A stretch of DNA of 64,000 nt from contig JAZDGU010000029.1 of assembly GCA_043806595.1 (NCBI GenBank), positions 2,548 to 66,547 on the forward strand. The letters run 5' to 3'. Source of the stretch: Candidatus Micrarchaeota archaeon (lineage in GTDB: Archaea > Micrarchaeota > Micrarchaeia > Norongarragalinales > SBBD01). Each line of letters starts with the position of its first letter. Position 1 is the first letter of the stretch. The position numbers and the translations under genes were made by a program. The notes beneath the pieces were generated by a model, which saw only the letters and a list, made by a program, of their open reading frames with translations, did not search any database and was not told the origin of the DNA. Below, one piece after another: positions 16,677 to 58,548 of this stretch.

Positions 16677-16697
16677 TGCAAGGGGCTAGAGGGCTTC

Positions 16698-19536: not shown

Positions 19537-19737
19537 TCAGAACAAATCCTTGGAATAAGCAATGGATTTCCCGGCGTCCATATCCTCTTTTATTCGGCGC
19601 AGTCTGGCCAGTTCGCTGGCGGATACTTTTTCTTCGGGAATCAGGCTCAGGAGCAAGGCGTTGTTTTTTTCGACTTCCTTCTGAAGATGCTTCACTTCCT
19701 TGAACAAATGGTTAACATTGACTTCCATCCAAAACAC
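19537..19737 (-). CDS. small coiled-coil ORF in low-GC DNA flanking the IS (uncertain)
   Basis: 66-aa ORF, KEVKHLQKEVEKNNALL...ELARLRRIKEDMDAG. No partner gene. Confidence 0.2.
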   Translation of the reverse strand: MFWMEVNVNHLFKEVKHLQKEVEKNNALLLSLIPEEKVSASELARLRRIKEDMDAGKSIAYSKDLF

Positions 19738-19901
19738 CGAACTTATATGGATTTGGCCATATTTAATGCCGTCGTTTATGCAAATTTAAGCGCATAATTT
19801 GCTATCGTGCCGAATCCGGCACAGTGACGCCAATATTTTTTTCGGAGTCCAACCCACGGCCAGCAGCTCGGCCAGGGCGCCTGATGACTCACTCCCTTGC
19901 G

Positions 19902-36266: not shown

Positions 36267-39200
36267 TCAGCCTGAAGTCGCGGCCTGGGCGCGCAACGCC
36301 TCGTTGAGAAACTCGAGCGCCTTCCGGTAGCCGGCGTCATTGCCCTGGTCGACGAGCTTTTCCGCCTCCTCGATGGACTTGACGACCTCCGGCGGGCACT
36401 GGTAACCGTCGCACCACTCCTTATAGCGCGCCAACAGGTTCGTCGCGGCTTCCGACAATGGAACAGGCGTCTGCGGGCCAGACTGCTCGTCCGACACCGG
36501 CACCCCAGCCCCCTCCAGCGCCGAATACCCGGGCAGTGCCGAAGACGTGACCACTGCTTCCGTGACGCTGAACGAGTCCGTCTGGACAGGCTTGGATGCC
36601 GCGAAGAAGGACTCCGCAATCGCCTGGGTGGCCTGCCTGCCGTTGAAAGCGGTAAGCAAATCATACTGGGGGACTCCGGCATACTCCGGGCCCTTGATGA
36701 AGTAGAAGCAGAACGGCTTCGTCCTCGGGCACAAGGCATTGGCGTCGACGCGGTTGAGGCAGACGGTCTTGCTTGCCTCGTCGCGCGTGCAAATCTCCTT
36801 GACCGACGTGACCGGGTCAGGGGCGTTGTCCAAGGTGGGGTTGTTGAAGACCACGACGTGGTTGCCGTAGCGGTAGTCCAACTCGGCGCGCACGGGCCTC
36901 AGGTCCGCGTAGGTGAGTATTGGTCCGAGAACGGCGACGATGGTCCCAACCAGCCGCGGGATCTTTGCGGGGGCGAACATGGACTTGAACCTGCTGCCGG
37001 CGTTCGTGAACTGCTTGAAGAAGCCTCCCGTGGTCTTCGCCGCCTTCGCGACGTCGTCGCCCTCGCTCTTGAGGACGTTCCGAGTGATGTCGATTATCGG
37101 TTTCTCGCTCTTGACGTTTCCTCCGGAAATCAGGGTCCGAGTTCTCGATAAAAGCCGGTCAGTCACTGTCGCTCCCCTTCCGAATTTTACATCGGCATCT
37201 GGAATTGAGGACATCGCGTTTTGCACCGTTCCCAGCCTAGGATACTTCGCGGTCATTTTGCGCAGGAAATCGTCGTACTGATCGGCAGGCACTATCGATT
37301 CCGCCTTGAGTATTCCCTTGAAGCTGAACGGCTTTCGGGTTCCTGTTGCGACATCCCCCCTTTGCCTCAAGTGCTCAAGCACGTGATCAAGTGTCTCTTC
37401 CTTCAAATATTGTGCCTCACTACTAATTCCAGCAGGCCATGGACCAGAGTGTAGGAAATTCCCGTTTCTAGGACCCTTGGCGGCAGTAAGCGAATCAACA
37501 ACATCGGCCCAGAGAGATGTCGAACCCGCCTTGGTGGATCTTGTGCCTCTCAACGAGGTCACTATCTGCTCCATGCGGCGCTGATACAAGGCGTTATCTA
37601 CGGGATTAAGCGACTTCTGCAGGGTGTCGTCGGCGAGCTTGTCGAAGAGTTCCTCCATCGCGTCGCGCCCGAGCATGTCGGACATGGCATCCATTATTAC
37701 TGGGTCGTTGGGTGGAATCTTCACCTTCACCAGTTCGTGGAAATCGGCGGCAGCCTTGCCCTTGGCGACAAGTTTCGTGATTGTCCTTGCGCTGAGGTCG
37801 CCGCCGAGGCCGAGGCGTTCTGCTTCCTTGATGCCATTGCGGAGGCCGATCGAGGCGTCGTAAGCCGAGCCCATCGATAGCCCGTAGTAGCGCGTCCCCT
37901 GTTCGGCCATCCACGCCGTGCTCCCCCAAGGCAGAATCGACCTGAACGCCTTCCCCGCTGGCAGCACAAGGTCGGGCTTGGCAACGACCTTGTCGTCTCC
38001 CTTGACGTACTCCACTCCCGAGAAAACCGCGCTGAAAGCCGTGAACGTGAGGAACTCGCTGGCAAATCTTGCGCCCAGGAACTTGGCGCTGAACGCCTGC
38101 CCGATGTTCCTCATAGTAGCGGCGCTGACGCCTTCGGCCGGCTTGAGGCCGAAGTTGGGGATGTACGCGGTAAACGTGTTAAGCAGGTAGTATGACGCGC
38201 CCTGCGCGCAGGCGTTCGCGGCGTCGCACGTGTTTGCGTCCTTGAATACGGCGTTTCCGACGTTGACGACGGAAGTCGAGCCGCACAATGCTAGCGTCGA
38301 AGCGAAGCCCATGACGGTTTCCTTGAGAGCGTAAGATACGCCGAAGGTCGCCATGATACCCTGGATGACCAAGTTTGGAGCGCTCGCGGCCATCACCGAA
38401 CCGGTGACCGCGCCCAACCGCTTGGTGCAGTAGCCTGCGTCGCTGTAGGACGGCGAATAGGAGAACAGGTTGGGACTGCTGCCATACAAGGCGGAGATCA
38501 AGCCCTGGGCGTTCCGCTCGTCCAACTCGCTGTTTCCGCCGCGGTAGGAACCAAAGTAAATCAGCTTGAACTTGTCGAATATGCTCTTGGCTTCCGCGGC
38601 GTCATTCGGCTTGCGGAGCTCGAAATAGGGCAGCTTGGTGTTCGCCTTGACCTGCTCGCGTCCGACGATGATTTGCGGGTCCTCGGCGGTAAGCAGGCCG
38701 GCGTTCGCGAGCGTCTCCTCGCACGCCTTGAACTGCGTCGGGTCGGCGGGATTGACGGCCATCTCTATTGACGCGGAGCGCAGCCACGCCTTCTTGTCCG
38801 GGAAGGAATTGGGGCTCTTGCAGAGGCCGAGGCGCGCAGTCACGATGTAGATGCCGCACGAGGATATGCCGCCCGAGGTGTCCCACTTGAAGTCTTCTAC
38901 GTACTTCTCGCCAGAAGCGTCGCGGAGCTCGCCGAGGCCCTCGTCAACGGACTTCTGCAGCTCGTTGAAAGAGACGCGCGTGTTCGCGCTCTGCACGATG
39001 ATGCTTTTATAGAAGCCGTTGCGGTTGTGGACGACGAGCCTCGGCTCGGACGGGTTGCAGAACGTCGAGATTTCCTTGGGGTATTTCTCGTCGAAGTAGA
39101 ACTTGAGGACGAACTCCTGCAGCTTCGCACCGAAGCCCTTGTAGGCGTCCTGCAGCTGTTCGCCGTTGCCCGTGCAGAAGTTCGTCTGGCACTGCATCGT

Positions 39201-42200
39201 CCCACCGGCGAGCGCGTCCAGCTTGCCCTGACTCTGGGCTCCAGTAGCGCCGGCATCGGACGCCAACAGCGCATCCGCGGCGTTTTCAGGAGTCCCGGCG
39301 CCGTCGGCAGGCGTCTCGAAGTAGAGGAAAACCCCGCCCGCGGTCTGGGCCGCGCCGCCTCCTGCGGGCTCGCCGGTGCCGCCCTCCTGCGCGGCCTTCT
39401 TGGCATCGTCCGTCGAGGCGAGCTCGGGCACCGGGACGGTGAGCGTCTGCTGTGGCACGAGGTCGCCCATGGGCGAGGACGGGAAGAACTCCTTGAGGGT
39501 TTCGTCGAGCGGCTTGCCGCCGACACCGACAATGACGGCGACCCTGCGCTGTTCGGGCTTGGTGGAAATCGCGCCGACGGAACGGATCTCGATGAAGCCT
39601 TCACCGGCCTTTTCCGCGGTGCATTCCGCGATGTAGCCGGTTCCGGCCTTCAGCGCCTGCGGGATGTCGCAGGATGCAAGAATGCTTCCGTCGCGGGATT
39701 TCGCGGCGTAGGAGAGCGAGAGGTCCTCGTCGTAGTTGTTCGTCATGGAGAGCCAGCGCTTGTGGCCGACGTCCTTGAAGACGAGCACCTGCGGCTCGCC
39801 GTTCTTGGCGTTGGTCTGGCCCTGCTGGTAGTTGACGTAGAAGCCGTTGAGCGCCGCGGACAGCTGCTTGCCGAGGTTGCCGAGGCACTTGCCGGTGTCC
39901 ACGAACGAAATCCTGATGGGCGCATCCTTGGCGGGCACCGTGCCCTGCCTTACCACGCCGAAGACGATCAGCTTGCCTTCCACGGACTGTTCCTCGAACG
40001 CCTCGGGCTTGAGGCAGCCGTACTCGTCGAGGAACTGCTCGGGGACGCCGACCTCGACCTCGAAACTCTGCCTCGGGCACGGGTCTTCGCCGGCGAGGTT
40101 GCGCTCGTTGACCCGCATGGAGACCAATTCCTTCAGCCAGGCGCCCTTCTTGGTGATGCTTTTCACCGCGTGGTCGAGGTCGCCCTTGGTAGAGACTATT
40201 GAGGGTCCCTCGAGCCATCCCTGCGGGCCGGAAAGCCGGAGGCCGGAGTTGAGCGGCGTGTTGATTTCCAACCGCACTTCCCTGTTGGAACTTCCCTCGT
40301 TCTTGACGCACAGCAGTTGCGACTGCGTGAGGTGGGAGTTCTCGTTGTTGAAAGTGAAGGTCAGGTCGCCCTCGAGAAGTATCGGGAAGGCCTCGTCGGT
40401 AATCAGCAGCATGCTGCCCTTCGTCTGCTTCTCGCACAGCACGAAGACGGTCTCCTCCTTCTTGGGGACGAGGACCTCGACGGGCGCGGCAGGGGCCTCC
40501 TGGCCGTCAGCAGCTGGTGCTGCAGCAGAGGTCAATATCCGGAAGGAAGGCGGGAAGATGACCTTGCGCACCTGCTTGAGCCCGTATTTCCGCCCGTTGC
40601 GGGAAATCTGGACGGAGAGGCAGGCTCCGTTGAAGTCGGTCTCGCGCGACACCTTGTCGACTTCCGAGGCGGTTGCGGGAAGGGTGTAGGTCACTTCCTC
40701 GCTGAAGATGCCCTTGATGCGGAAGCGTTCCTTGGGCTGGGCCATGTCCGTGGGGGCAATGCGCAACACGAAGAGCGTGTTGTCGGGGATGGTGAACTCG
40801 AGGGGGTCGGAGCCGAAGCTCTCTTCAGTGGTGCGCTTGGACATGATGCGCGTGGCATCGGCCTCGAAGCGGTCCAGCGTCTGTGGATCGGACAGGGTGA
40901 GGGTCACGGGGTTGGAAAGCCGTACTGATTCCATGGGCGAGTCCTTCCAGTAGTCGGTCTTGAGGCCGAGGAGGCTCTCCTGCGGCACGGACACCCCGAC
41001 GTCGAAAGGCAGGGTGAACTCGAAGTCCATGCCCTGCAGCATGGCGAGCTCGGGGTCGACGGTTGTGAAGGTTATTGGCTGGTTGGCGGCAAGCAGGACG
41101 TCGAACGAGGAGTCTTTCCTTTGTGTCTGGGGGGTGAAGCCGGCGGGGAAGGTCGCCTCGTAGCTCGTCGTGGCGATGCGGTTCTGGACGAGGTTCGACT
41201 CGCGGGGGAAGTGCCAGACGGAAGGCGCGGGGAAGGCGACGGTGAAGCTCTCCTGCCCGCGCACGGATTCGGAAGCCTTGAGGATCCTGCGGTCCATGGT
41301 GAGCATCGAGCCTGCGTGAACCTCGAGCTTGGCCGTGCCCTGCGGGGTCTCGGCGGAGGAGGACGCGCCTTCCGCGAGCATCCTGGCTCCGTTGGCGAAC
41401 TCGACGAGCTTGGCGTCGGAGGTCGGCACGTTCCTCACATTGACGTTGGGTGCCAGTGAGAGGCTGAAGCCAGCTGGAATCTCCTTCTCGGAGCCGTAGA
41501 CGCCGAACTCGGCTGGTCCGAGGGACATCTGCGTGTACGGAAGGACGTCAACGGAATAGCTGGAGTCGGGGAGCTTGAGGCCCTTGCGCGCGACACCGTA
41601 GAACGAGAGCTGGCTGCGGTCGTTGGAGATGGAGCTGACGGTGAAGCCGTCCTGCGCGACGCTCACCGAGACCTGCTCGTCCTTCTGGATTCGGAACATC
41701 ACGCGGAACGGCAGCATCATGCTGAGCCTGCCGTAGGGGTCCTGCTGGGCGAAAGGCGAGGGCATGCGGACGGCGCTGCCCGCGGGTATTGTTATCTTCT
41801 TGAAGTCGTTGGAGTCCGTGGAAATTACTGCGTCTGCGGGCAGGGAAATCGTCGTGCCGCTGCGGAACTGGAGCGCCTTGTTGCCGTTGAACTCGTCGCG
41901 CTTGACGCGCACGAACTCCTGCGGCAGGAATACGGCCTCCACGGGGAAGTAGACCTCGTAGGCGTCGCGGGAGGAGACGAAAGGCGTCAGCTGGATGCGG
42001 AAGGGCGTGTTGGAGGGAAGTGAAGCACGGCGCTGGCCGATGTCCCGCTGGCGCGTAAGCCGTATGCTTGCGGGGATGGTGATGTCGAAGTCCTCGACGG
42101 TCGCGGTCTGGAGGGAGCCCTCGCGCGTGAACTCGGTCTCGGGCTCGAAGTCCATGAACAGGCTGACGGGGAAGCGGAGCTCCCACGCGGTGTCGGCCAT

Positions 42201-45200
42201 CGGCTGCTGGTAGGGCTCGTAGCGGTTGGAGTAGCGCTGGTTGCTTGCGACTGCTATCTTGCGCGCCCACGCCGGCGGCACCTGGAAGAACGCGCCCGCC
42301 GGGACTATCGCGGCGAGCGAGCCCGCGGAGGTCTGCAGGGAGAATATGTAGGACGCCTGGTAGGGCGACTGCGCGAGATTCGAGAGGTCGCCGACCTGCG
42401 CGCCCTGCTCGAAGAGCATCGAGTCGCCGCTCGGCAGCTCGACGTACTCCGTTCCGTCGGGGTTCTCCTTGTGCAGGGTGCCCTTGGGGAACTGGAAGAC
42501 GAGCTCGACGGGAAGCGCGAGCCGCACTCCGTTCTTGACCTCGCCGACGTCGGGCAGGGCCTCGGTGGCGCTCACCTCGATTTCGTCGGACGAGCACGGC
42601 GACCCTCCGGCAGCCGTAGTCGCCTTGTAGGTGCCTGCCGCGGGGTAGCTGCATTTGATTGAACAGGAGCCTGTGGTGCCGGTGCAGTCCTTCGCGGTGA
42701 CGGTGCGACCGTTGCCGCAGTTGACTGGAAAGACGTTGGGGGCCTTGGGCAGGTCGTAGTAGCTTATCGTGAGGAGCGTGTTCTGGTTGCGGGAGAGCGT
42801 GGTCGGGTCCGCGGTTATGACGCACTGGGGCTCGGCCTCTGACAGCGGGTCCTCGTCTGGCTTGAGCACGTCGACCTGCACGGCACTGCATTGCGTGCCG
42901 GAGGCGGCTGCCTGGACGGCGTATGTGCCGTCCTGCTCGTAGTAGCACTTGGCCTGGCATGTTCCGGTGGTGCCGCTGCAGCCGGCGGCGTTCGCTGTCC
43001 TGCCGTTGCCGCAGTTGATGAGGAGCGCGTTGGGGGCGCGGGCGAGGTTGTAGTAGTTCGCCGTCACCATCGTGAACTCGCCTTCCTTTATCCTCGAGGG
43101 GTCGATGGTGAGCGCGCAGGAGGGGCGGGATGCCTGAACCTCCACGTATGCCGTCGTACATTCGACGCCGCCGGAAACCGCCAAAACCGTGAACTCGCCT
43201 GCCCGGGGATACCGGCATTTCGCCGAGCACGAGCCGGACTCGCCGGAGCATGAGACCGCGGAAACCTTCCTTCCGTTGCCGCACTCGATTTCGAAGGAGT
43301 TCGGGGAAGGCGAGAAGTCGGAGAAGGCGACGGTAACCGAGGATTCCTGGCCCTCGTCGAGGAGGGAAGGTTCGACGGTGAGGGCGCAGGACGGTTCGGG
43401 CAATGGCGTGGGGGTGACGGTGCCGCCCGAGCCGACGTCGCTGCAGCTGTCCGAGGAAGTGGCCGAATACGTCAGGGAGAGCTGGCGTTTGGAGGAGACG
43501 CCTTGCGTCGTTGCGATAAGCTTGAGCGTCGCGTTGCGCTCGTCCGGCTCGGTTTCGCAGGGGTCGACGGGCATCGCCTTGGCATAGACCCGAAACTCCG
43601 CTGAGCCGCCGCTGGGGACCACCACGGACAGGGGCTCGACGGAGAAAATCCTCGGGAGCGTGTTCTCCTGGTTGACGAGCAGCGGGTAAGGCGCGTCGTT
43701 GGTGACGGTTATCGACTGCATGTCGGACCTGACCTTCGGGGGCTGGAGGGCGAACTGCAGGGACTCGCTGGAGACCTGCCAGAGCGTGCCAAGCTCCTGC
43801 TGGACGAAAGAGGTCTTGACGGTGAACGGCACATATTCCTCCTGAGAGCTTCCGCCGAGCCTGGCGGAAATCCTGATGCGGCCGTTTATCTTCTCGGAGA
43901 CCGTCGAGGCGCGTTCGGCGATCTGGAGGACGGCATCGTCGATTTCGGCGGTCAGGCTCACGGTGCCGGACTGGCGCGCCTTCAACCGCAAGGAGAAGGT
44001 GTCGACGTTGATGCGGGTGTACTTTGGAATCTGCGAGAACTGCAGGGACATGGTCACGGGCACACTGTCCTCGAGGAGGTTGTTCACGGAGAACGCCTGC
44101 TGCTGGGGGTCGCGGGACTCGACGGCGAGGGCAAGGGCAGTTGAGTCGACTTCGACGAGCCTGACTGCGGAAACCAGGAGGGTGCCGCGCTTGGACTTGA
44201 AGCCCTCGGCGTCAATCTTGAAGGATACGTACCCCACGCTGACCGGCCTGATGCCCTCCGCGCGGTACGACGCGCTGCCGTCCCTGCCCTCGGTGTAGAC
44301 GCCCTCAACCTGCGCGCCCCTCAAGGCGTCCGAGCCGTCCCCGAGAACAACTGAAGCGTCCTTGACCGGGAGTCCGAGGGAGTCCGAGACCTTGAACGTT
44401 ACCACGCCGTCGGCAAGCGCCTGCAGCGACTTGGGCGAGTAGGAGACCTTCAGGTCGGGCTTGGTGCCGACGACGCGCGCCGCGAGATTGCGGGTCACCG
44501 TCGACTCGCCGAAGCGCGCCTGCAGCGTCAACGGGACGTCGTTTGAGAGGCGCTGAGCGCGGATTGAGAAGGTGCCGGCTGCGTTGTCATCGGAAGTGGT
44601 AAGCGATATCGCCTGCTCGTCGCCCTTGCGCGCACGCGCGCGGCTGTCACCGCTCACGCCCTCCTCGAGGGAAAGCGAGAGGTCGTCCGCGGGCGAGGTC
44701 AGCTCTATGACCGCGCCGCGTGGGGCCGCTAGCGTGAACTTGAGGGAGAACGTTTCGCCGGACTCCGCGGCGTAGTTGTCCGAGACCGTGCCGCCCCTGC
44801 CCTCGAAGTGAGACTCGAGGCAGACCTCGCCCTCGCAGATGCCGCCGAAGGAGAGGGGAAGCGACACGGAATTGGTTGCCGCGGAGAGGGCGTCGGGCCC
44901 GGCGACGGAGTCGACGGGGTCGCGGAGGATCTCGCGCGAGGTGTAGAACGCGGCGCGGTATTGGACGTTGACCGAGGCGCGGGAAAGCGGCCTGGTGCGT
45001 ATCTGAACGGACACCTCACGGGTGCCCTCGAAGGGCTGGAAGGTGAAGTCCGCGAACTTGTAGCCTTGCACGTCCTCGCCCGCCAGAAACAGGGCGGCGG
45101 CATTCCCGGCCGGGGTCGGCGTCGGGGTCGCGGTGACAGTCGCGGTAGGCTCCTCGCGCGAATACTCGGTGCCCTTGCGGACCACCGCGCTGCCGGAACC

Positions 45201-47240
45201 GTATCCGACTATTTCCGCGGTCTCGCTCTCGAGGGAGGAGTCCTCGTTCCCGATGCGGATGTGAGCCTGTATGCGGGAGACGGAGACCGGCGGCTTGGAC
45301 AGGACGAATCGCAAATTATAGACCGTCGAGGGGGAAAGAGAGGAGGCCTTGTTCCCGGTGAGGTCGTATGCCCCCTGGAACACGAGCTTTGCCCCCGAGA
45401 GCACGCCGACGGGCATCAGCTCGAACTCCTGCTTGTTGTTGACCCCGGGCTTGACCTCGAATTCCGAGGAAAGGAGGTCGTCGTAACCCTCGGCCTCGAC
45501 CCTGGCGGCATAGAAGCCCTCGAGGATCTTGAGGGAACACGCTCCCTTCGAGGTGGTGCAGGAGCCAGTTGCGGCAAACTCGCCCATCGAGGGCGAAAAC
45601 TCGACCCGGGCGCCGTCGATGGTCTTGTTCGTGAAATGGTCGCGGACCTTGACGGAGAGCTTGCCCGGCGCGGGCATGAGTAAGACGTGAAGGAGGTTGA
45701 CGTCCTCGGACTCGCCCGTTCCTTCGACAGTGAGGAGGACGGGCAGGCTGGAGCCGTTCCTTCCCGCGGCGCTCGCAACCGCGATGACCTCGTCGAGGGG
45801 CAGGCCGTCAAATCCCGTCGTGCCGTCCGCGCTCGTGTATTTCTCCGGGACCCCGGTCGGAAGGCCGTCCAAGTAGGAAAGGGATACGTATGCGGAGGGC
45901 ACGAACTCGCCGTTCTTGTCGGTGACCTCGACGACGGCCTTCGCCGAATTGTCCTTGCCGGCCTCCTCCAGCCTGACGGAATACGATTTGCCCTTCTCTG
46001 CGTCCATGATCCTGGCGGGAAGGAAGCCGTACTTGTAGACCGTGACGTAATATGAAGACCTTTCGAGGTCCTTGAAGACGGCGACGCCGTCCGAGGGTAT
46101 TTCCTCGCTTATCTTGGCGCCTTGCGGCTCATGCAGCCAGACCGAGGGATTGGAAAGCGAGCGGTTGTCGGAATCGAAGACGGCTACCGTAATCGAGCGG
46201 AGCTGTTCCTTTGAAACCTTCCTAAGAACCGCGTCGATGCCGGTCTCGGCCTGGACCTCGGTCTCCGCGGAAAGGAAGGCAGGATATCCTGCCGCCTTCA
46301 CGGAGACGTATATGGCCGTTCCTAGCTTGATTTCCTGCGAGGGCACGCCGCCGTCCGCGCCCGACTTGAGGTTCCGGAAGATCGTCTTGCCGGTGCCGGC
46401 CTCGCTTATTTCGATTGTGGCGTTCCCAATGCCCTCGCGGGTGTCCGAGTCGGTGACGCGGATGATAACGCGGCCGTTGACCGCGGACTGCTTCGGCGTC
46501 AGGCCGAAGGGCGGCAGGGTCTTGTCGCTTGAATCGACACGCACGTCGCGCGACTCGTCGTTGAAGCCCTCGGCCTGGACGACGACCTTGTAGGCGGTGT
46601 TCTGCTGGACGTCGAACGTGACAGTAGCCCCGGTCTTGGAATCGGCGATGGGAACGTATGTAGCGGTGTCGAAGAGCCAGAAGGTCGCGGACGAGGGCGG
46701 GGGCTCGACTGAAAGCGCGAGCGAAACAGTGGTCCTTGCGGGTTCGGGCGCGAGCCTGACGGTCACGAGGTTGTTCTCCGACTTCTTGCCGACGCTAACC
46801 CTCGAGCTGGCGCCCGAGTCGAAGGTGAGGGTGGAGCCGTCGAAGCCCGCGGCGGTGAGGGTGAGCTCGGCGCCTACGGGGGCCCCGGAGAAGTAGGCGA
46901 CGCCGTCGGAGCCCGTGGTGGCCTCCATGCGCTTCATGCCGTAGGCGTTCTCGGGGTCGGCGAGGAACACCCTCGCGTCTGACACCGGCAGGCCGTCGGA
47001 TGCGAGCAGCGTGACGGTGACGTCCGCGGTCTTGGGCTCGAATGCCTTCGTGCCGCCGAGCAGAAGGAAGGCGGCCCCGCCGAAAATCAGGAGAAGGATG
47101 AGCAGGAACACGGGCAGCGAGGGAAGGCCCTTCTCCTCGAGCCAGTCCGCGGCGTCCTTGAGGGGGAGGCCCTTGTCCGCGCACCATTCGAGAAAGCCCT
47201 GCCACTTCTCATTGACGGATTCGAAGAATTCCTCGAGCAT
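36267..47240 (-). CDS. giant membrane-anchored surface protein (3657 aa) with many beta-rich Ig/CarbopepD-reg-like repeats, three Cys-rich modules and a roughly 1000-aa non-repetitive C-terminal region
   Basis: Uninterrupted 10,974-nt ORF with host-like GC3. N-terminal signal-anchor LPSLPVFLLILLLIFGGAAFLLLGG. Start set at MLEEFF (47240) because the first in-frame codon (47417) would overlap the upstream Zn-ribbon ORF. Confidence 0.75.
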   Translation of the reverse strand: MLEEFFESVNEKWQGFLEWCADKGLPLKDAADWLEEKGLPSLPVFLLILLLIFGGAAFLLLGGTKAFEPKTADVTVTLLASDGLPVSDARVFLADPENAYGMKRMEATTGSDGVAYFSGAPVGAELTLTAAGFDGSTLTFDSGASSRVSVGKKSENNLVTVRLAPEPARTTVSLALSVEPPPSSATFWLFDTATYVPIADSKTGATVTFDVQQNTAYKVVVQAEGFNDESRDVRVDSSDKTLPPFGLTPKQSAVNGRVIIRVTDSDTREGIGNATIEISEAGTGKTIFRNLKSGADGGVPSQEIKLGTAIYVSVKAAGYPAFLSAETEVQAETGIDAVLRKVSKEQLRSITVAVFDSDNRSLSNPSVWLHEPQGAKISEEIPSDGVAVFKDLERSSYYVTVYKYGFLPARIMDAEKGKSYSVRLEEAGKDNSAKAVVEVTDKNGEFVPSAYVSLSYLDGLPTGVPEKYTSADGTTGFDGLPLDEVIAVASAAGRNGSSLPVLLTVEGTGESEDVNLLHVLLMPAPGKLSVKVRDHFTNKTIDGARVEFSPSMGEFAATGSCTTSKGACSLKILEGFYAARVEAEGYDDLLSSEFEVKPGVNNKQEFELMPVGVLSGAKLVFQGAYDLTGNKASSLSPSTVYNLRFVLSKPPVSVSRIQAHIRIGNEDSSLESETAEIVGYGSGSAVVRKGTEYSREEPTATVTATPTPTPAGNAAALFLAGEDVQGYKFADFTFQPFEGTREVSVQIRTRPLSRASVNVQYRAAFYTSREILRDPVDSVAGPDALSAATNSVSLPLSFGGICEGEVCLESHFEGRGGTVSDNYAAESGETFSLKFTLAAPRGAVIELTSPADDLSLSLEEGVSGDSRARARKGDEQAISLTTSDDNAAGTFSIRAQRLSNDVPLTLQARFGESTVTRNLAARVVGTKPDLKVSYSPKSLQALADGVVTFKVSDSLGLPVKDASVVLGDGSDALRGAQVEGVYTEGRDGSASYRAEGIRPVSVGYVSFKIDAEGFKSKRGTLLVSAVRLVEVDSTALALAVESRDPQQQAFSVNNLLEDSVPVTMSLQFSQIPKYTRINVDTFSLRLKARQSGTVSLTAEIDDAVLQIAERASTVSEKINGRIRISARLGGSSQEEYVPFTVKTSFVQQELGTLWQVSSESLQFALQPPKVRSDMQSITVTNDAPYPLLVNQENTLPRIFSVEPLSVVVPSGGSAEFRVYAKAMPVDPCETEPDERNATLKLIATTQGVSSKRQLSLTYSATSSDSCSDVGSGGTVTPTPLPEPSCALTVEPSLLDEGQESSVTVAFSDFSPSPNSFEIECGNGRKVSAVSCSGESGSCSAKCRYPRAGEFTVLAVSGGVECTTAYVEVQASRPSCALTIDPSRIKEGEFTMVTANYYNLARAPNALLINCGNGRTANAAGCSGTTGTCQAKCYYEQDGTYAVQAAASGTQCSAVQVDVLKPDEDPLSEAEPQCVITADPTTLSRNQNTLLTISYYDLPKAPNVFPVNCGNGRTVTAKDCTGTTGSCSIKCSYPAAGTYKATTAAGGSPCSSDEIEVSATEALPDVGEVKNGVRLALPVELVFQFPKGTLHKENPDGTEYVELPSGDSMLFEQGAQVGDLSNLAQSPYQASYIFSLQTSAGSLAAIVPAGAFFQVPPAWARKIAVASNQRYSNRYEPYQQPMADTAWELRFPVSLFMDFEPETEFTREGSLQTATVEDFDITIPASIRLTRQRDIGQRRASLPSNTPFRIQLTPFVSSRDAYEVYFPVEAVFLPQEFVRVKRDEFNGNKALQFRSGTTISLPADAVISTDSNDFKKITIPAGSAVRMPSPFAQQDPYGRLSMMLPFRVMFRIQKDEQVSVSVAQDGFTVSSISNDRSQLSFYGVARKGLKLPDSSYSVDVLPYTQMSLGPAEFGVYGSEKEIPAGFSLSLAPNVNVRNVPTSDAKLVEFANGARMLAEGASSSAETPQGTAKLEVHAGSMLTMDRRILKASESVRGQESFTVAFPAPSVWHFPRESNLVQNRIATTSYEATFPAGFTPQTQRKDSSFDVLLAANQPITFTTVDPELAMLQGMDFEFTLPFDVGVSVPQESLLGLKTDYWKDSPMESVRLSNPVTLTLSDPQTLDRFEADATRIMSKRTTEESFGSDPLEFTIPDNTLFVLRIAPTDMAQPKERFRIKGIFSEEVTYTLPATASEVDKVSRETDFNGACLSVQISRNGRKYGLKQVRKVIFPPSFRILTSAAAPAADGQEAPAAPVEVLVPKKEETVFVLCEKQTKGSMLLITDEAFPILLEGDLTFTFNNENSHLTQSQLLCVKNEGSSNREVRLEINTPLNSGLRLSGPQGWLEGPSIVSTKGDLDHAVKSITKKGAWLKELVSMRVNERNLAGEDPCPRQSFEVEVGVPEQFLDEYGCLKPEAFEEQSVEGKLIVFGVVRQGTVPAKDAPIRISFVDTGKCLGNLGKQLSAALNGFYVNYQQGQTNAKNGEPQVLVFKDVGHKRWLSMTNNYDEDLSLSYAAKSRDGSILASCDIPQALKAGTGYIAECTAEKAGEGFIEIRSVGAISTKPEQRRVAVIVGVGGKPLDETLKEFFPSSPMGDLVPQQTLTVPVPELASTDDAKKAAQEGGTGEPAGGGAAQTAGGVFLYFETPADGAGTPENAADALLASDAGATGAQSQGKLDALAGGTMQCQTNFCTGNGEQLQDAYKGFGAKLQEFVLKFYFDEKYPKEISTFCNPSEPRLVVHNRNGFYKSIIVQSANTRVSFNELQKSVDEGLGELRDASGEKYVEDFKWDTSGGISSCGIYIVTARLGLCKSPNSFPDKKAWLRSASIEMAVNPADPTQFKACEETLANAGLLTAEDPQIIVGREQVKANTKLPYFELRKPNDAAEAKSIFDKFKLIYFGSYRGGNSELDERNAQGLISALYGSSPNLFSYSPSYSDAGYCTKRLGAVTGSVMAASAPNLVIQGIMATFGVSYALKETVMGFASTLALCGSTSVVNVGNAVFKDANTCDAANACAQGASYYLLNTFTAYIPNFGLKPAEGVSAATMRNIGQAFSAKFLGARFASEFLTFTAFSAVFSGVEYVKGDDKVVAKPDLVLPAGKAFRSILPWGSTAWMAEQGTRYYGLSMGSAYDASIGLRNGIKEAERLGLGGDLSARTITKLVAKGKAAADFHELVKVKIPPNDPVIMDAMSDMLGRDAMEELFDKLADDTLQKSLNPVDNALYQRRMEQIVTSLRGTRSTKAGSTSLWADVVDSLTAAKGPRNGNFLHSGPWPAGISSEAQYLKEETLDHVLEHLRQRGDVATGTRKPFSFKGILKAESIVPADQYDDFLRKMTAKYPRLGTVQNAMSSIPDADVKFGRGATVTDRLLSRTRTLISGGNVKSEKPIIDITRNVLKSEGDDVAKAAKTTGGFFKQFTNAGSRFKSMFAPAKIPRLVGTIVAVLGPILTYADLRPVRAELDYRYGNHVVVFNNPTLDNAPDPVTSVKEICTRDEASKTVCLNRVDANALCPRTKPFCFYFIKGPEYAGVPQYDLLTAFNGRQATQAIAESFFAASKPVQTDSFSVTEAVVTSSALPGYSALEGAGVPVSDEQSGPQTPVPLSEAATNLLARYKEWCDGYQCPPEVVKSIEEAEKLVDQGNDAGYRKALEFLNEALRAQAATSG
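42570..43400 (-). repeat. three tandem Cys-rich modules of about 85-95 aa (about 270 nt each) inside the giant gene
   Basis: Protein repeats SCALTVEPS...IECGNGRKVSAVSCSGESGSCSAKCRYPRAGEF, SCALTIDPS...INCGNGRTANAAGCSGTTGTCQAKCYYEQDGTY and CVITADPT...VNCGNGRTVTAKDCTGTTGSCSIKCSYPAAGTY. Consensus C..(T/I).P......I.CGNGR....C.G..G.C..KC.Y...G.Y. Confidence 0.6.
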
Positions 47241-47320
47241 GCGGATTATCGGAAAGATAGGGCGAAAACACTTATTTAAATACCATCGTAGCGGCCAAAT
47301 GGAAAAAATTCGCGTCCTGC

Positions 47321-47656
47321 TCAGCGGACCCTCCGCTGGAGAGGCAGGACCGAACCGCACTTCCTGCAGACCTTCTCCTTGTGCTTCCAGTTCAGTTCGA
47401 AGTCCGTGCCTCCGCACTCGGGGCAGGCGCGTATCTCGCTCTTGTGGAAGTCCATCCAGCCCTCCTTGCCGTCGCGGCCGGCGAAGGACTGGTGGGAGAA
47501 GGCGACGCGCTCGCGGCGGTCGGTCAGCTGGGGCTTGTCGTCATCGAACTTCTTCTTCTCGACGGCGGGCTTGACCTTGCGGCTGGAGCACCGCGGGCAG
47601 ATGACCGCATCCTCGGCCTCCCAGTGCAGCGAACAATTGTCGCAGGCGTATTTCAT
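47321..47656 (-). CDS. double zinc-ribbon protein (111 aa)
   Basis: CDNC...CPRC and CPEC...CRKC pairs. 80 nt upstream of the giant gene on the same strand. Confidence 0.5.
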   Translation of the reverse strand: MKYACDNCSLHWEAEDAVICPRCSSRKVKPAVEKKKFDDDKPQLTDRRERVAFSHQSFAGRDGKEGWMDFHKSEIRACPECGGTDFELNWKHKEKVCRKCGSVLPLQRRVR

Positions 47657-53005: not shown

Positions 53006-56000
53006 TCAGAGCCGCTCGCGCAGCCTCCTGAGGGCCTCGGCGGCGGAAAACCGGGGAGCCGCCTTCACACCATCCTTCGCATTGCCCGCTTGTACGACGC
53101 CCCCGGGCGGGTTTTCGGCCCGCCGGGCGGAAATGTACACCGCGGCGCCGACAATCAATGCCAGGAGGACGAACGCCAGCCACGAATATTGCATGTAGTC
53201 GAACCCCGCACGTGCCTGCTTCTCCTTCAACAGCCGCTCGTATTCGCGCCGTATCGCGTCCTCGTCGTCGGGGTCGATTCCCATGGACTGCAGGTTCCGG
53301 ATGACCTTGAGCCGGTCCTCCGCGGAAACGTCCCCGAGGTTCAGCCTCGTCCAAACGGCTTCAATCTCGGGAGGGATATATCCGCCGTTCCAGTCCGCCC
53401 AGTCGAAGGTGGGCTCGGGGGTGGGGGTGCCGTCGGGGCCACTGGTGCCGTTGCCGCCGCCCTCGCCGTTTCCGTTACCGTTCCCGTCGGGGCCCCCGCC
53501 GGGCGGCGTTGCAGTCGGGGTTGGAGCAGCGGGGGGAGGGGTGGGCGTGGGCAGGTCGGGCGGTTCGATGATTGAGCCGGTGCCGAGGACGAATGTGAAC
53601 GCGCCCGTGCGGTTCACCGTCTCGTTCCAAGCCTCGGCGTAGGGCCCGAGGTAGTATGTGAACGTGTGCGGCGTGGACAAAACCATGAGCCCCGAATTGT
53701 CCATTTTCTCGCGGAGGGTCAGGGGGGCAGTGCCGTTCGCGAGGAGGATGACGTTCTCGACAGGCCTGCCTGAGACGTTGTAGACCGCGGCGTAGCCGGT
53801 AGCCGGCGATCCGTTGGAATACCTGAACCTCGCCTCGACGTCCCAGTCGAACCCAATCCATGCCGCGGGGTCCAGCGAATAGCGGACCGACGCGGAGCGG
53901 ATGTTGACGAAAGCCATGCTGGACTGGAACGCGAGCCGCGCGTCCAGCGCGTTTGAGGTGAAGGAGGGGCTGCGGGCGGTGATGCAGGGGCCCGAAGGGC
54001 AATCAATGGCGGAGGAGTGGTTGAAGAAAGTGGTGTTCGGGAAGACGTTCGAGCCGGTGCCCCCCCATTCCGACACTCCGTAGGCGTTGCTCCTGAACGC
54101 GTTGCTCTGGAAGACGTTCCGGTTGGACGAGCTGAGCGATGTCCCCCTCTGGGCGCCGGAGACGGAATTCAGCGAGAACAGGCTGTCCGCCGACCACACG
54201 GAAGAGATGCCGGTGCCGCCCTTCATGGCGAAGGCGTTGTTCGAGAACGTGTTGAAGCGGGAGTGGTCCGTGGAAAGCCCCACCGTCGGATCCGCGTAGT
54301 TGGCGTTGGTCGCAGTGAACCTGCAGTTGCTTATGCGCACGCCCTTCCTGCCGGAGACGTTCGCGCCGATCCGCGGAAACGACACGGAATAGCCGGCGCA
54401 GTCAAGGGACGCGTTGTCCGCGGCGAACTCGAAGCAAGGGGCGTTGCCGGGGGCCGTCACGCTCCGTGCGAGGGCGTAATTGCCGGCGGAAGAGAAAGTT
54501 GTGCATGACGAAACCTGCGAGGCGTTGGGCGGCGGGGGCGGCGCCACCGGAGTCCCGGTGCCCCAGGAGAAATTGAATATGCCGGAGCGGTTGACGGTGG
54601 TGTTCCACTGCTCGGTCCTGCCGCCGAGGGTGAAGTCGAAGCGGTGCGGAGTCTGGTTGGTCACATACGCCCAGCTCACACTGCAGCTCGTCCACCGGTA
54701 GGTCTTCTGCCTGAGGCGGAACGCCGCGGTGCCGTTGGCTCCGGTCTGGGCGCCTCCGGCTGCAGCGCCCTGCAGGTCGTGGACCAGCGCGGCGGCGTCA
54801 ACCGGCATGCCTGTAGTGGAGTTCGAAAGGTTTGCGACCGCGTGCCAGTCGACGTAGATGTACACCGGCGGGTTGCCGCCGTACGGGGCGCATAGGCACG
54901 GAATTGATACCTTGGGCTCGCCGGTCAAGGCGTTGAATATCGTAATGTTGGAGGTGAGGGTAGAACTGACGTCTATCCTGTTGTTGAGGAAAGAACAGTT
55001 GTTGATATCAATGGTGGTCAAAGCTAGCACTATGGCCTTCCCGGCGTTCGCGAACGAAGAGCGGGAAATCCGGCCGGTACTGCCCCAGTCATAGCCCGAA
55101 AGCGCATAGGAGTCGTAGTCCGTGAAATCCGAAAAGGTGTTCAGGTCGATGGTGACCGACGACACTCTAGAGACATGCAAGCCGTTCTGCCCGCCCGTGA
55201 AATGATTCCCCGTAAGATTGACGCCAGAGGACCGGTAGATAAGGCCGCTATTTCTTCCTCCGGAAACGCGGTTGCCCACGAACGCGAGCGCGTTGATGTT
55301 GCTGAAATTCAGGCCCGTTGTCTGCGATTTCAGCGAGAGGTTGTTCGCGGTCGCAGTCAAGCCCGTGACGTTGACGAAGTCGAGCGCGTAGGAGTATGTT
55401 ATGTTGGCTGAGGCAGAGAGGTTGCAGTTCGATACCGAGACGTTGCGCCGGTTGTTGGCCCTCACACCGACGTTGTAGTATTCGGCTTTGAATCCCGCGC
55501 AGTCGAGATGGACGTTGTCCGCGGTGATGGTGAAGCACGTCCCGTAATCGGAGGACACGTCGCGCACGAGGACGTAGGAGCCCGGCGCGCCCAACGTCCC
55601 GCAAGCATACACTGGGATGCAGGGCGGGTTCTGCTGAGTGCAGTCCGGGGATTCGAGGACGTTGACTGCTGCCACGCCCGAAACCGCACCGAGGCGCGCC
55701 GTGACCGTGCCATTCGAGGGGGTAGCGCCCGCGGTGAAGAGGCCGGATTGGGTGACTGAGCCGGTGGTGGAGGACCACTCAAGCGGGGGGCAGGCGACGT
55801 TCGACCCGCATTCGTTCGTGCAGGTGGCGGTGAACTGCTGGCTCGCGTTGACGAGGACGTTCGCGGGATCGGGGCTAACGGAAATCCGCGTGATCGCCGG
55901 CTGGGATCCGCCGACGCCGGTGAAACCGTAGTAATTCGTCATGACCAGCGCCCCTCCGGCGATCGCGGCACCCGCTCCATCAGAGGGATTGGAGAGCTGC

Positions 56001-57079
56001 GCCGACTGGCCGATGACGCTCCCGTTTGAAGCCGAAAGGCGCGTCACCCTGAAAGCCGGGCTGTTGTAGTCGCCGGGGAAACACTCCGTCACAACCTCGT
56101 CCTGGCCTTGGAGATAGAACGAGAAATAGGCGCACTTGATGTTGCTGTTCACCCAAACCAGCTGGCCGCTGGAGGAATCGAGCGCGCGCGGCCTGAAGTC
56201 GCCCCTGGGGCCGGAGACGGTGTACAGCCGGCCGCCGTTCTCGGACATGTAATAGCCGCTGCCGTTGACCGGCCCCCAAATCCTCCCGCTGCCGTCCGCG
56301 GCATAGGCGGCAATCTGCTCGATGTAGGGCGGGTGCGTCACGTCTCCCCTAATGCCCCCGAGGAAAATCTTGTCCCCCGAGGAAAGGATCTGCACGGGCG
56401 AGAACCGCGTGTCGTGCAAGGGCACCTGCCAGGCAGTGACCCCGGAATCCTTGTACAAAGCGACGAGGTAGCCGCTCCTCGTGAAGACGAGCACGTTGCC
56501 GGAGACCACTGGAGGGGCGTTGCCGATCGTGGAGGACGTCGCGGTCCAGATGAACTCCTTGGAGACCGTGTCGAAAGCCCGGATCTCGATGGAGTTGTAC
56601 CGCGGGAAGAACACGTAAACCCGGTTCCCCTCGGCGGCGAGCATGGGGGTCGCGCCGGAACCCTCCCCGAGGTAATACTCCTCGCCGAACCACAGCCGGT
56701 CGGTCAGCTCCTGCAGGTAATAGCTGTAGTAATAGTTCTTATGGGTAACCGAATAAACGTTCCCGCCGGCGGTCACCAAACCGGTGGGCGTCCGGTCAAG
56801 GCGGCATGCGCGCGAATCCTTGACGCTCCCGCACGCAACGTCCACCTTCTGCCAGCGGCAGTTCGACCCATCAAGCGTGAAAAACTCCTTTCCGGAAGGC
56901 GCCTCGACGGGACTCGATGCGCTCCAGGTCTTTTGCCACATCACGTAGGACATGTTCAAGGGCGCCGCGGTCGCAACCGACGGATTGCGCTGGCTGCCGG
57001 AGAAGGCCTGGTCCCATATCGCGTTGGAGCACGCCACCGACGCCAAAAGGAAGAGGATTGCTGCGAGCCGCCGGGCCAT
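53006..57079 (-). CDS. large secreted surface protein (1357 aa): signal peptide, PQQ-like beta-propeller, Ig-like (Big_2) domain, parallel beta-helix (NosD/CASH) repeats, Thr/Pro-rich and GNGNG linker, C-terminal TM anchor
   Basis: Signal peptide MARRLAAILFLLASVACSNA. PQQ-type repeats (VYVFFPRYN..., LVALYKDSGVTAWQ). PbH1 repeats (NNLSLKSQTTGLNFSNINALAFVGNRVSGG...). PTPTPPPAAPTPTATPPGGGPDGNGNGNGEGGGNG low-complexity linker. C-terminal helix WLAFVLLALIVGAAVYI plus a 45-aa cytoplasmic tail. Confidence 0.75.
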   Translation of the reverse strand: MARRLAAILFLLASVACSNAIWDQAFSGSQRNPSVATAAPLNMSYVMWQKTWSASSPVEAPSGKEFFTLDGSNCRWQKVDVACGSVKDSRACRLDRTPTGLVTAGGNVYSVTHKNYYYSYYLQELTDRLWFGEEYYLGEGSGATPMLAAEGNRVYVFFPRYNSIEIRAFDTVSKEFIWTATSSTIGNAPPVVSGNVLVFTRSGYLVALYKDSGVTAWQVPLHDTRFSPVQILSSGDKIFLGGIRGDVTHPPYIEQIAAYAADGSGRIWGPVNGSGYYMSENGGRLYTVSGPRGDFRPRALDSSSGQLVWVNSNIKCAYFSFYLQGQDEVVTECFPGDYNSPAFRVTRLSASNGSVIGQSAQLSNPSDGAGAAIAGGALVMTNYYGFTGVGGSQPAITRISVSPDPANVLVNASQQFTATCTNECGSNVACPPLEWSSTTGSVTQSGLFTAGATPSNGTVTARLGAVSGVAAVNVLESPDCTQQNPPCIPVYACGTLGAPGSYVLVRDVSSDYGTCFTITADNVHLDCAGFKAEYYNVGVRANNRRNVSVSNCNLSASANITYSYALDFVNVTGLTATANNLSLKSQTTGLNFSNINALAFVGNRVSGGRNSGLIYRSSGVNLTGNHFTGGQNGLHVSRVSSVTIDLNTFSDFTDYDSYALSGYDWGSTGRISRSSFANAGKAIVLALTTIDINNCSFLNNRIDVSSTLTSNITIFNALTGEPKVSIPCLCAPYGGNPPVYIYVDWHAVANLSNSTTGMPVDAAALVHDLQGAAAGGAQTGANGTAAFRLRQKTYRWTSCSVSWAYVTNQTPHRFDFTLGGRTEQWNTTVNRSGIFNFSWGTGTPVAPPPPPNASQVSSCTTFSSAGNYALARSVTAPGNAPCFEFAADNASLDCAGYSVSFPRIGANVSGRKGVRISNCRFTATNANYADPTVGLSTDHSRFNTFSNNAFAMKGGTGISSVWSADSLFSLNSVSGAQRGTSLSSSNRNVFQSNAFRSNAYGVSEWGGTGSNVFPNTTFFNHSSAIDCPSGPCITARSPSFTSNALDARLAFQSSMAFVNIRSASVRYSLDPAAWIGFDWDVEARFRYSNGSPATGYAAVYNVSGRPVENVILLANGTAPLTLREKMDNSGLMVLSTPHTFTYYLGPYAEAWNETVNRTGAFTFVLGTGSIIEPPDLPTPTPPPAAPTPTATPPGGGPDGNGNGNGEGGGNGTSGPDGTPTPEPTFDWADWNGGYIPPEIEAVWTRLNLGDVSAEDRLKVIRNLQSMGIDPDDEDAIRREYERLLKEKQARAGFDYMQYSWLAFVLLALIVGAAVYISARRAENPPGGVVQAGNAKDGVKAAPRFSAAEALRRLRERL

Positions 57080-57224
57080 AAGTGAACTACTGCGGCGTAT
57101 TAAAAAACGATGCCTGCGGCGAGGGGTCCGGACACCGTCCGGCAGATGCCCCGCGCGCCCGAAACCCCGTCTCCCGCCGCGAACGGTTTTTAAGGGATTC
57201 CCCGCTAATGCACGCATGTTCCTC

Positions 57225-57899
57225 TTCGACAACGTGCTCAAGCTGCTGGCGAAGGTCTTCCGGGTGGTGAACCGGCGGAGGTCGGTGGCCATCACGTTCC
57301 TCGTCGGGTCGCCGCTCACAGTCTACTGGTTCCGGACGATATGGCTGGAGCAGCCGTTCACGATGCAGGTGGTGGCGGTGTACAGCCTCGTCTTCCTGCC
57401 CTTCCTGCTCTACAAGGCGCTGCTGTACTTCTTCCTTTCCCTCTTCGATACCGTCGTGATATTCTTCGCGGACTACACGAAAAGCTACGACGTCGACTTC
57501 GAGAAGGTTCGCGCGCGCGTCGCCAAGATACTCGTCGAGAAGAACGTAAAGTACCAGTCGCTCGACAGCATGGCTCTCGGCGCGGAAAGGGGCCTCCTTG
57601 AACGACTGCGCGGCTGGCTCCACATAAAATACCCGCTCATCTTCGTCTGCGCCGACGACCCGTTCGTTGTAATAAAGATATTCAAGTCCCTCGGCTCGCC
57701 GCGCATCCAGGACCTCAAGCACCAGATTACGCACAAGGAGGCCATCAGCGTCAAGATATTCTTCGAGGAGGAACCGAGGGCGCGCGTGCTCGCCAAGCTG
57801 ATAATGAACTCGCTGGAGGTGCTCAACACCGACCAGAGGGAGGCCGAGCCCCCCGGAATTGCAGTGCAGGCGATCCAACTCTCCGACGAGGGCAGGTGA
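57225..57899 (+). CDS. hypothetical membrane protein, paralogue A (224 aa), unrecognised family
   Basis: N-terminal TM helices, then cytosolic motif EKVRARVAKILVEKNVKYQSLDSMALGAERGLL...PLIFVCADDPFVVIK. Start at first Met after the divergent intergenic region. Confidence 0.5.
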   Translation, partial: FDNVLKLLAKVFRVVNRRRSVAITFLVGSPLTVYWFRTIWLEQPFTMQVVAVYSLVFLPFLLYKALLYFFLSLFDTVVIFFADYTKSYDVDFEKVRARVAKILVEKNVKYQSLDSMALGAERGLLERLRGWLHIKYPLIFVCADDPFVVIKIFKSLGSPRIQDLKHQITHKEAISVKIFFEEEPRARVLAKLIMNSLEVLNTDQREAEPPGIAVQAIQLSDEGR

Positions 57900-58480: not shown

Positions 58481-58548
58481 CCGGTAAACCCGCGGTTGAT
58501 TCGGCTTCTACCCACGTAATATTAGCCTCTCCGCCGACTGGGAATCGC

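Follow-up and report, generated by a model that had tools for sequence, protein, structure and literature searches.

Analyzing a stretch of 64,000 nucleotides from a Candidatus Micrarchaeota contig (hereafter, the window), we found that one giant gene on the minus strand carries three tandem cysteine-rich modules, which are probably Ig-like beta-sandwiches of about 90 residues each, an offshoot of the PKD domain that is rich in cysteines, is braced by disulfides, and serves as extracellular spacer or adhesion units. A well-known building block is thereby extended by a new subfamily; the kind of domain itself is not new. The link to PKD comes from a family-level sequence match, a shared motif register, a confident structural model, and PKD repeats that already carry part of the cysteine framework, while the disulfides are suggested by the way in which cysteines are lost across the family.

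The module array and the giant protein

The array occupies window positions 43394-42561 on the minus strand and consists of three copies of 90 to 98 aa (Table 1), which bears out the earlier note's claim of three tandem Cys-rich modules inside the giant gene. A family HMM run on the six-frame translation of the whole window finds exactly these three copies, all within that gene. Cysteines stand at module positions 3, 38, 49, 56, 60, and 79 in all three, with the same spacing, C-35-C-11-C-7-C-4-C-19-C; the fixed spacing had thus been recognized correctly, while the reported "six or seven" cysteines come down to exactly six per module. The CGNGR motif is unchanged throughout, and the two stretches previously read as the ends of modules, CSAKCRYPRAGEF and CQAKCYYEQDGTY, are indeed present, at module positions 56-68 rather than at the ends. 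A Thr/Pro linker, TPTPLPEP, lies upstream of module 1, module 2 abuts module 1 without any linker, and the C-terminal end of module 2 is an acidic/proline linker, LKPDEDPLSEAE.

Protein identity between modules is 40-45% in pairwise comparison (BLASTP E = 2e-28 to 3e-30) and 36-42% without the Cys columns. This similarity far exceeds chance. At the DNA level the modules are 54-57% identical. A recent tandem duplication is rejected because of this low DNA identity and because each module is closer to its positional counterpart in the ortholog P0003 than to its neighbors: the P0003 triplet matches one-to-one, with modules 1, 2, and 3 being 57, 59, and 52% identical on the diagonal and 37-42% off the diagonal.

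Table 1. Positions of the giant gene, its modules, and its other features in the window
Feature	Window position	Strand	Residues	Details
Open frame containing the giant gene	36267..47417	minus		reaches up to GTG at 47417
Giant gene	36267..47240	minus	3,657 aa	from ATG at 47240; ORF list and translation
Single N-terminal hydrophobic helix	47052..47117	minus	aa 42-63	LPVFLLILLLIFGGAAFLLLGG; Kyte-Doolittle scan
CarboxypepD_reg (prealbumin-like) repeat, best of five	46794..47021	minus	aa 74-149	Pfam PF13620, E 7.8e-19, 68.3 bits
Module 1	43125..43394	minus	aa 1283-1372 (90 aa)	96.6 bits on family HMM
Module 2	42831..43124	minus	aa 1373-1470 (98 aa)	102.0 bits on family HMM
Module 3	42561..42830	minus	aa 1471-1560 (90 aa)	94.5 bits on family HMM
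Distal C-terminal region	36270..42560	minus	~2,100 aa	no recognized domain; conserved with P0003

The ORF list and translation make the ATG at 47240 the likely start, and the resulting protein of 3,657 aa is identical to the representative P0001, which is NCBI protein MFH1106925.1 from a Candidatus Micrarchaeota MAG. The helix at aa 42-63 is the only segment in the entire protein with a 19-residue Kyte-Doolittle mean of at least 1.6. It is predicted to act as a signal-anchor, and with this single N-terminal anchor the other ~3,590 aa would be outside the cell. Judged from its sequence, then, the giant protein is a predicted membrane-anchored surface protein of a Micrarchaeota (DPANN) archaeon, and the single anchor supports the probable extracellular location that the earlier note had proposed.

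Five PF13620 stretches form the membrane-proximal part. The C-terminal region of ~2,100 aa, presumed to be the functional part that contacts host or substrate, gave no Pfam match at E<0.01 and no PDB sequence match at E<0.5, and Pfam and PDB sequence searches with the rest of the giant protein returned nothing usable. P0003 is 44% identical to the giant protein over 2,906 aa, with the C-terminal region conserved too. Lying between the CarboxypepD_reg stalk and this distal region, the modules most likely act, by analogy, as rigid spacer or adhesion units with covalent bracing, which would hold the distal region off the cell and would be resistant to proteolysis, unfolding, and a harsh environment. 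Archaeal S-layer proteins and bacterial giant adhesins use PKD and other Ig-like repeats in this way.

The module family and its relationship to PKD

Since indexed homology searches, both with the three modules and with a 72-sequence family alignment (A3), found no homologs, an exhaustive hmmsearch of cluster-representative proteins was needed. With a profile built from the three window copies, this search retrieved 144 representative proteins at E<=1e-3, including 64 at E<=1e-10. Full-length copies with at least six cysteines number 178 in 107 proteins, and all six columns are occupied by cysteine in 161 of the 197 full-length family copies. The named matches with six-Cys modules all belong to DPANN archaea and for the most part to Micrarchaeota, being listed either as Micrarchaeota or Norongarragalinales plus one Aenigmarchaeota, consistent with the lineage-centered distribution suggested before, and they carry no annotation in the module region. 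Two named matches fall outside DPANN, one being a canonical PKD protein of Methanospirillum and the other a cyanobacterial Calx-beta protein that matches weakly and only in part. A literature search found no account of the cysteine-rich module.

None of the Pfam, NCBIfam, or PDB sequence models scored above threshold on the window copies. The NCBIfam search gave nothing meaningful, PDB sequence searches with the 3- and 72-sequence profiles returned only chance-level matches (RNase K6 and complement factor H, E>0.05), and single window modules had no PKD match whatsoever in Pfam. The three-module segment reaches 21.0 bits on Pfam PKD, below the gathering score of 23.5. The family consensus, however, reaches 24.2 bits (E 3.4e-5), a margin of only 0.7 bit, in a match that is full length (residues 4-84 on profile positions 3-76 of 80), and 5 of the 72 real family members match Pfam PKD, the best at E 9.9e-7. 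When the family profile was aligned by hhalign with six canonical PKD sequences, 76 columns matched at E 4.9e-5 and 68% probability, five of the six templates coming from proteins that the module HMM had itself retrieved; with the single sequence of 1b4r, identical to the PDB chain, just 18 columns aligned at 2% probability.

In the hhalign register, CGNG falls on FGDG and C5 on the HxY histidine, with the C3-C4 hairpin as an insertion. The WDFGDG motif is absent from the module, which has (I/V)-x-C-G-N-G instead and retains G-x-G alone (G39 in 69, N40 in 65, and G41 in 70 of the 72 family sequences). The H-x-Y-x3-G-x-Y-x-V motif of strands E and F is present as C-x-Y-x3-G-x-[YF], with His replaced by Cys (C5), and aligns on HxYxxPGxY of PKD; here Y62 is found in 71, G66 in 54, and Y/F68 in 66 of the 72 sequences.

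The predicted structure points in the same direction. AlphaFold2 with alignment A3, whose first sequence is module 1, gave a model of eight strands at pLDDT 96.4 and pTM 0.83, an Ig-like beta-sandwich of ~80-90 residues with PKD topology, and the top Foldseek match is 4xed, a PKD structure. A single-sequence AlphaFold run on the three-module segment reached pLDDT 50 and was not informative. The CARDB structures 2kl6 and 3idu follow at Foldseek ranks 5-7 (TM 0.55-0.60), below the PKD match, and CARDB (PF07705) has no Pfam match even at E up to 10 for modules, members, or consensus.

We consider it unlikely that the module is instead a generic bacterial/archaeal Ig-like (E-set) domain nearer to invasin/intimin-type Big_1 or Big_3_5, with PKD-like motifs arising by convergence. 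Weak Pfam matches to Big_1 (15 of 72 members) and Big_3_5 (10 of 72) are indeed more frequent than those to PKD, and the three-module segment scores 26.4 bits on Big_1. However, that score is far from the Big_1 gathering score of 34.9, and the consensus, which stands at threshold for PKD, obtains 18.0 bits on Big_1 (PF02369) and 20.1 bits against 35.5 on Big_3_5 (PF16640). Moreover, the best Big_1 matches are partial (profile 48-91 or 38-92), in contrast to the full-length PKD match, and the module is tied to PKD both by the register of xGNG on xGDG and C/H-x-Y-x3-G-x-Y and by intermediate PKD repeats that have four of the six cysteines.

All in all, the module fits best into the PKD/Ig-like (E-set) superfamily, as a divergent branch rich in cysteines. 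The earlier note had recognized no PKD, CARDB, or Big domain and had regarded a high-probability match to a named family as fatal to its reading. CARDB is indeed absent and Big stays below threshold; the claim that the module is no PKD/Big-type domain is not supported, given the consensus score, the five matching members, and the end-to-end WDFGDG-type alignment. The match to a named family is nevertheless a marginal one, resting on the hhalign probability and on a Pfam score above threshold for the consensus only.

Probable cysteine pairing and its implications

The six Cys columns of the family are invariant or nearly so, and losses occur in pairs: C3 and C4 are missing together in 11 copies, C2 and C5 in 6 copies, two of which read FGD...H-x-Y as in PKD, and C1 and C6 are both missing in several. 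One lone cysteine is missing in only two copies. This pairwise loss implies that the module most likely holds three intradomain disulfides, C1-C6, C2-C5, and C3-C4, and it lends support to the earlier idea of a cysteine-stabilized module. The putative C1-C6 bond would join the first strand to the segment ahead of the last strand, C2-C5 would stand in for two PKD residues, the aromatic ahead of GDG and the HxY histidine, and C3-C4 would staple an inserted hairpin of ~8 residues.

Alternatively, the cysteines could bind metal, for example, with C2-C5 as a Cys4 zinc or iron-sulfur site, and the module would be a redox or metal-binding unit without disulfides. Four cysteines (38, 49, 56, and 60) do lie within 23 residues and include one C-x3-C pair, and extracellular disulfides are less to be expected in the anoxic habitats of some DPANN archaea. 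However, the loss of C3 with C4 or C2 with C5 while the other four are kept fits independent disulfides, C2 and C5 give way to the Phe and His that are buried in canonical PKD, no metal-binding family is matched in Pfam, NCBIfam, or PDB, and the module region is predicted to be extracellular, so we regard metal binding as very improbable. Still less credible is a genuinely novel fold, specific to the lineage and without relation to known domains, which would fit the lack of above-threshold Pfam, NCBIfam, or PDB sequence matches for the window modules and the empty indexed homology search but is largely refuted by the AlphaFold model, the structural matches, and the consensus score on Pfam PKD.

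Returning to the disulfide-braced PKD offshoot, we see an even chance that it constitutes an unnamed, Micrarchaeota-centered domain family in which the PKD core pair is replaced by a disulfide and two further disulfides are added, a triply cross-braced PKD derivative that marks giant unannotated surface proteins of DPANN archaea. For host attachment and exploitation by DPANN archaea such as Micrarchaeota, giant surface proteins are the prime candidates, and most of their sequence carries no annotation. If true, the family merits its own model within the E-set clan, and the module could help to find the proteins with which these episymbionts contact their hosts. The PKD-type reading annotates ~180 copies of the domain, spread over more than 100 representative proteins now called hypothetical, and provides a searchable signature for this protein class, C...CGNG...C-x-G-x2-G-x-C-x3-C-x-Y...C. 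It reveals no new mechanism, as both the fold and what tandem Ig-like repeats do in surface proteins are already well known.

Comparison with known systems

The best structural match is PKD (Pfam PF00801/PKD_4), which, like the module, is an eight-strand Ig-like sandwich of ~80-90 residues and has the G-[DN]-G turn after strand C and x-Y-x3-G-x-Y-x-V in the same register. In contrast to PKD, the module has lost the Trp-Asp-Phe of WDFGDG, carries Cys for the His of HxY, adds a Cys-Cys hairpin of ~8 residues (C-x-G-x2-G-x-C), and has an extra Cys pair connecting its N- and C-terminal ends, and its window copies score under the Pfam PKD threshold. PKD structures are available from a Thermoplasmatales M14-like peptidase (4xed), a Methanosarcina mazei surface layer protein (1l0q), and human polycystin-1 (1b4r). 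Like the module, PKD occurs in tandem in archaeal extracellular proteins, and proteins with the PKD fold have been suggested to take part in the surface layer and in cell-cell interaction in Micrarchaeon Mia14 (PMC5498576).

The Methanospirillum "PKD domain-containing protein" WP_319539163.1 (P0060) scores 471.7 bits on Pfam PKD over 11 repeats. These tandem repeats have C1, C3, C4, and C6 and the same hairpin insertion, and most of the 11 can be aligned with the module profile from position 1 to position 85 of 90, but they keep the canonical WDFGDG and HTY and are without C2 and C5. In sequence, they look like an intermediate form between canonical PKD and the module, which suggests a simple path of evolution, leading from canonical PKD by way of four-Cys forms to the six-Cys module. 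Invasin/intimin-type Big_1 and Big_3_5, in contrast, yield partial matches well under their thresholds and share with the module neither a common motif register nor a conserved cysteine framework.

The same principle is found in the giant adhesins of Gram-positive bacteria such as Mobiluncus mulieris, which contain many cross-linked Ig-like repeats, each braced by intradomain covalent links that include disulfides (PMC10619420). However, they belong to a different domain family and organism group, and most of their links are ester and isopeptide bonds, next to a single disulfide, whereas the module has three putative disulfides and shows no signature of ester or isopeptide bonds.

The giant gene and its modules

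The longest ORF of the window encodes a protein of 3,657 aa, counted from the first ATG at 47240, that houses three cysteine-rich modules. This giant protein is identical to P0001 (MFH1106925.1 in the public representative library), which comes from a Candidatus Micrarchaeota MAG and carries as its sole annotation "carboxypeptidase-like regulatory domain-containing protein". Its only strongly hydrophobic segment is aa 42-63, near the N-terminus, suggesting as the simplest arrangement that a short N-terminal stretch lies in the cytoplasm, that this segment is a signal-anchor and that the other ~3,590 residues are extracellular, in keeping with an earlier note that proposed a possibly extracellular module. 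The membrane-proximal part contains five CarboxypepD_reg repeats (E 7.8e-19), followed by a Thr/Pro linker and the modules at aa 1283-1560. The distal 2,100 residues have no match in Pfam or PDB sequences and are well conserved in the ortholog P0003 (about 44% identity overall); this large, conserved and predicted extracellular region probably forms the protein's functional end. Cysteines outside the modules are mostly closely spaced pairs too, which fits further small disulfide loops.

In translation of the giant ORF the modules run head-to-tail, module 1 abutting module 2 without a linker and a short acidic/proline linker separating modules 2 and 3. Pairwise they share 40-45% protein identity (BLASTP E 2e-28 to 3e-30), 36-42% when the cysteine columns are left out, and 54-57% DNA identity, and a family HMM run against the six-frame translation of the whole window detects no copy besides these three. 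The tandem triplet noticed from the sequence alone thus exists, with small corrections: it is encoded by the minus strand; the cysteines number exactly six per module rather than "six or seven", in a common spacing at positions 3, 38, 49, 56, 60 and 79 (C1 to C6); and the strings CSAKCRY... and CQAKCYY..., quoted as module ends, are present but occupy module positions 56-68.

Features of the window, with strand and length where available
Feature	Position	Strand	Length	Content
SUF iron-sulfur cluster assembly cluster	4423-8545	+		two SufB/D-type genes, class-V aminotransferase (SufS-like)
Superfamily-1 helicase (AAA_11/AAA_12)	9864-13652	+	1,262 aa	C-terminal MTES_1575 restriction-endonuclease-like domain
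G+C dip	16001-20000			G+C 0.535-0.56
IS66-family transposase	18036-19361	+		inside the G+C dip
Giant ORF	36267-47417	-		Cys pairs outside modules at ORF residues 620/627, 861/866, 2743/2748, 3064/3070, 3669/3674
C-terminal region of giant protein	36270-42560	-	~2,100 aa	
Module 3	42830-42561	-	90 aa	
Module 2	43124-42831	-	98 aa	
Module 1	43394-43125	-	90 aa	
Second large protein	53006-57319	-	1,437 aa	NosD-type beta-helix, PQQ-like beta-propeller repeats
T2SSE-family ATPase	57859-59694	+		type IV pilus/archaellum-type

The eIF2-gamma gene of the window has its best matches (64-67% identity) in Micrarchaeota, Micrarchaeia and Norongarragalinales MAGs, which places the organism among the DPANN archaea; its G+C, about 62% in the window, is unusually high. 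Against this value the dip is the only low-G+C stretch, and the transposase inside it is probably a recent insertion. The second large protein adjoins the T2SSE-family ATPase, and the two may form a surface-structure neighbourhood. No tRNA genes and no Rfam matches at gathering score were found in the 64-kb window.

A probable divergent PKD-type family centred on Micrarchaeota

Although a word-indexed homology search with the module gives no match, an exhaustive hmmsearch that takes the three copies as query against 1.84 billion representatives retrieves 144 proteins at E<=1e-3, of which 64 reach E<=1e-10 and 19 reach E<=1e-30. After re-extraction of domains, 107 of the 144 proteins contain full-length copies with six or more cysteines, 178 in all; these 107 have a median length of 1,101 aa and one to six copies each. 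In a 72-sequence alignment of family members (A3), five of the cysteine columns never vary and the remaining one is cysteine in 70 sequences; conservation is 90% or higher at G39, N40, G41, Y24 and Y62. The family signature reads C-x-[LIV]-x-A-x-P ... Y-x2-L ... [VI]-x-C-G-N-G ... A-x2-C-x-G-x2-G-[ST]-C-x-A-x-C-x-Y-x3-G-x-[YF] ... G-x2-C-x2-A-x-V-x-V. Named proteins with the six-cysteine module belong to Micrarchaeota, Micrarchaeia or Norongarragalinales, plus one Aenigmarchaeota, all DPANN groups, bearing out the proposed lineage specificity as a lineage-centred distribution. Nearly all are labelled "hypothetical", and many also contain CarboxypepD_reg repeats. One of them, P0004 (MFH1106996.1, 1,904 aa), has five full-length copies with other regions between them and one CarboxypepD_reg repeat; since its accession number is only 71 away from that of the giant protein, both probably come from the same MAG, and the organism would therefore employ the module in at least two proteins.

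The earlier note did not recognise the module as a standard PKD, CARDB or Big domain, but several lines of evidence, each marginal by itself, converge on a divergent PKD-type domain. AlphaFold on the whole three-module segment from single sequence reaches a pLDDT of only 50; module 1 modelled with A3 gives an eight-strand all-beta domain (pLDDT 96.4, pTM 0.83), for which 4xed is the top-ranked Foldseek match and the sole one at E<=1e-3. The three-module segment stays below the gathering scores of Pfam PKD (21.0 vs 23.5 bits) and Big_1 (26.4 vs 34.9 bits), and single modules match neither. Among the 72 family members, 15 match Big_1 weakly, 10 match Big_3_5 weakly and 5 match PKD (best E 9.9e-7). 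The family consensus barely passes the PKD threshold at 24.2 bits, over its full length (residues 4-84 on profile 3-76 of 80), and scores lower on PKD_4, Big_3_5 and Big_1. With six cysteine-poor canonical PKD sequences as templates (five from HMM-retrieved proteins, plus 1b4r), hhalign aligns A3 over 76 columns (E 4.9e-5, 68% probability); C2 falls opposite the WDFGDG Phe, C5 opposite the HxY His, and the C3-C4 hairpin forms an 8-residue insertion relative to canonical PKD. Against 1b4r alone, whose sequence is identical to the PDB chain, only the C-x-Y...G-x-Y-x-V segment aligned.

Canonical PKD proteins are themselves among those fetched by the module HMM. In WP_319539163.1 of Methanospirillum sp. 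(P0060), with 11 Pfam PKD repeats (471.7 bits in total), the HMM aligns to most repeats over profile positions 1-85, with iNCGNG on WDFGDG and C-x-Y-x2-aG-x-Y on HTYxxPGTY. These repeats (aa 300-1070) keep the canonical WDFGDG motif and share with the module its hairpin insertion (C-x-G-G-x-C) and cysteines at four of its six positions, C1, C3, C4 and C6. In evolutionary terms they look intermediate, standing between ordinary PKD and the six-cysteine module.

Proposed cysteine pairing and age of the triplication

Cysteine variation among full-length family copies fits three independent disulfide pairs, C1-C6, C2-C5 and C3-C4. All six columns are cysteine in 161 copies; in 17 others C3 is missing only through alignment shifts, each still having six cysteines. 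Where cysteines are lost, they mostly go by pairs: C3 and C4 together in 11 copies from 9 proteins, leaving exactly four; C2 and C5 together in six, two of which (P0081) read FGD...H-x-Y, the PKD residues; and C1 and C6 together, with the middle four kept, in several copies (P0021, P0030, P0052, P0074, P0097). A single cysteine, C6, is missing in two copies. This pattern fits the three putative pairs, agreeing with the suggested disulfide-type module, and argues against the cysteines forming a single four-cysteine metal site.

The ortholog P0003 (44% identity over 2,906 aa, its N-terminus truncated where the contig ends) contains this module triplet as well. Modules 1, 2 and 3 are 57, 59 and 52% identical to their positional counterparts there vs 37-43% to their own neighbours; since each is nearest its counterpart, the triplication is, judged from sequence comparison, old, fixed and under selection, and a recent slippage event is ruled out by the same identities. 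More distant relatives (P0024, P0033, P0035, P0041, P0049) each carry one module only, at ~aa 1300.

Proposed role and known systems

The role of the modules is most likely structural, by analogy with related repeats that act so. PKD repeats are found in archaeal surface-layer proteins. Moreover, in the cultured Micrarchaeon Mia14 a part in cell-cell interaction has been proposed for PKD-fold proteins (PMC5498576), and cross-linked Ig-like repeats occur in giant adhesins (PMC10619420). As covalently braced Ig-like beads, the modules would lengthen and stiffen the extracellular stalk of the giant protein, present its distal 2,100 residues and perhaps add to adhesion. None of the window's copies is covered by an entry in Pfam, NCBIfam or PDB, and we found no description of the six-cysteine module in the literature. 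We rate the module as a PKD-like subfamily with six cysteines and with Micrarchaeota as its centre; its fold and superfamily are already familiar, as is the occurrence of tandem Ig-like repeats in giant surface proteins.
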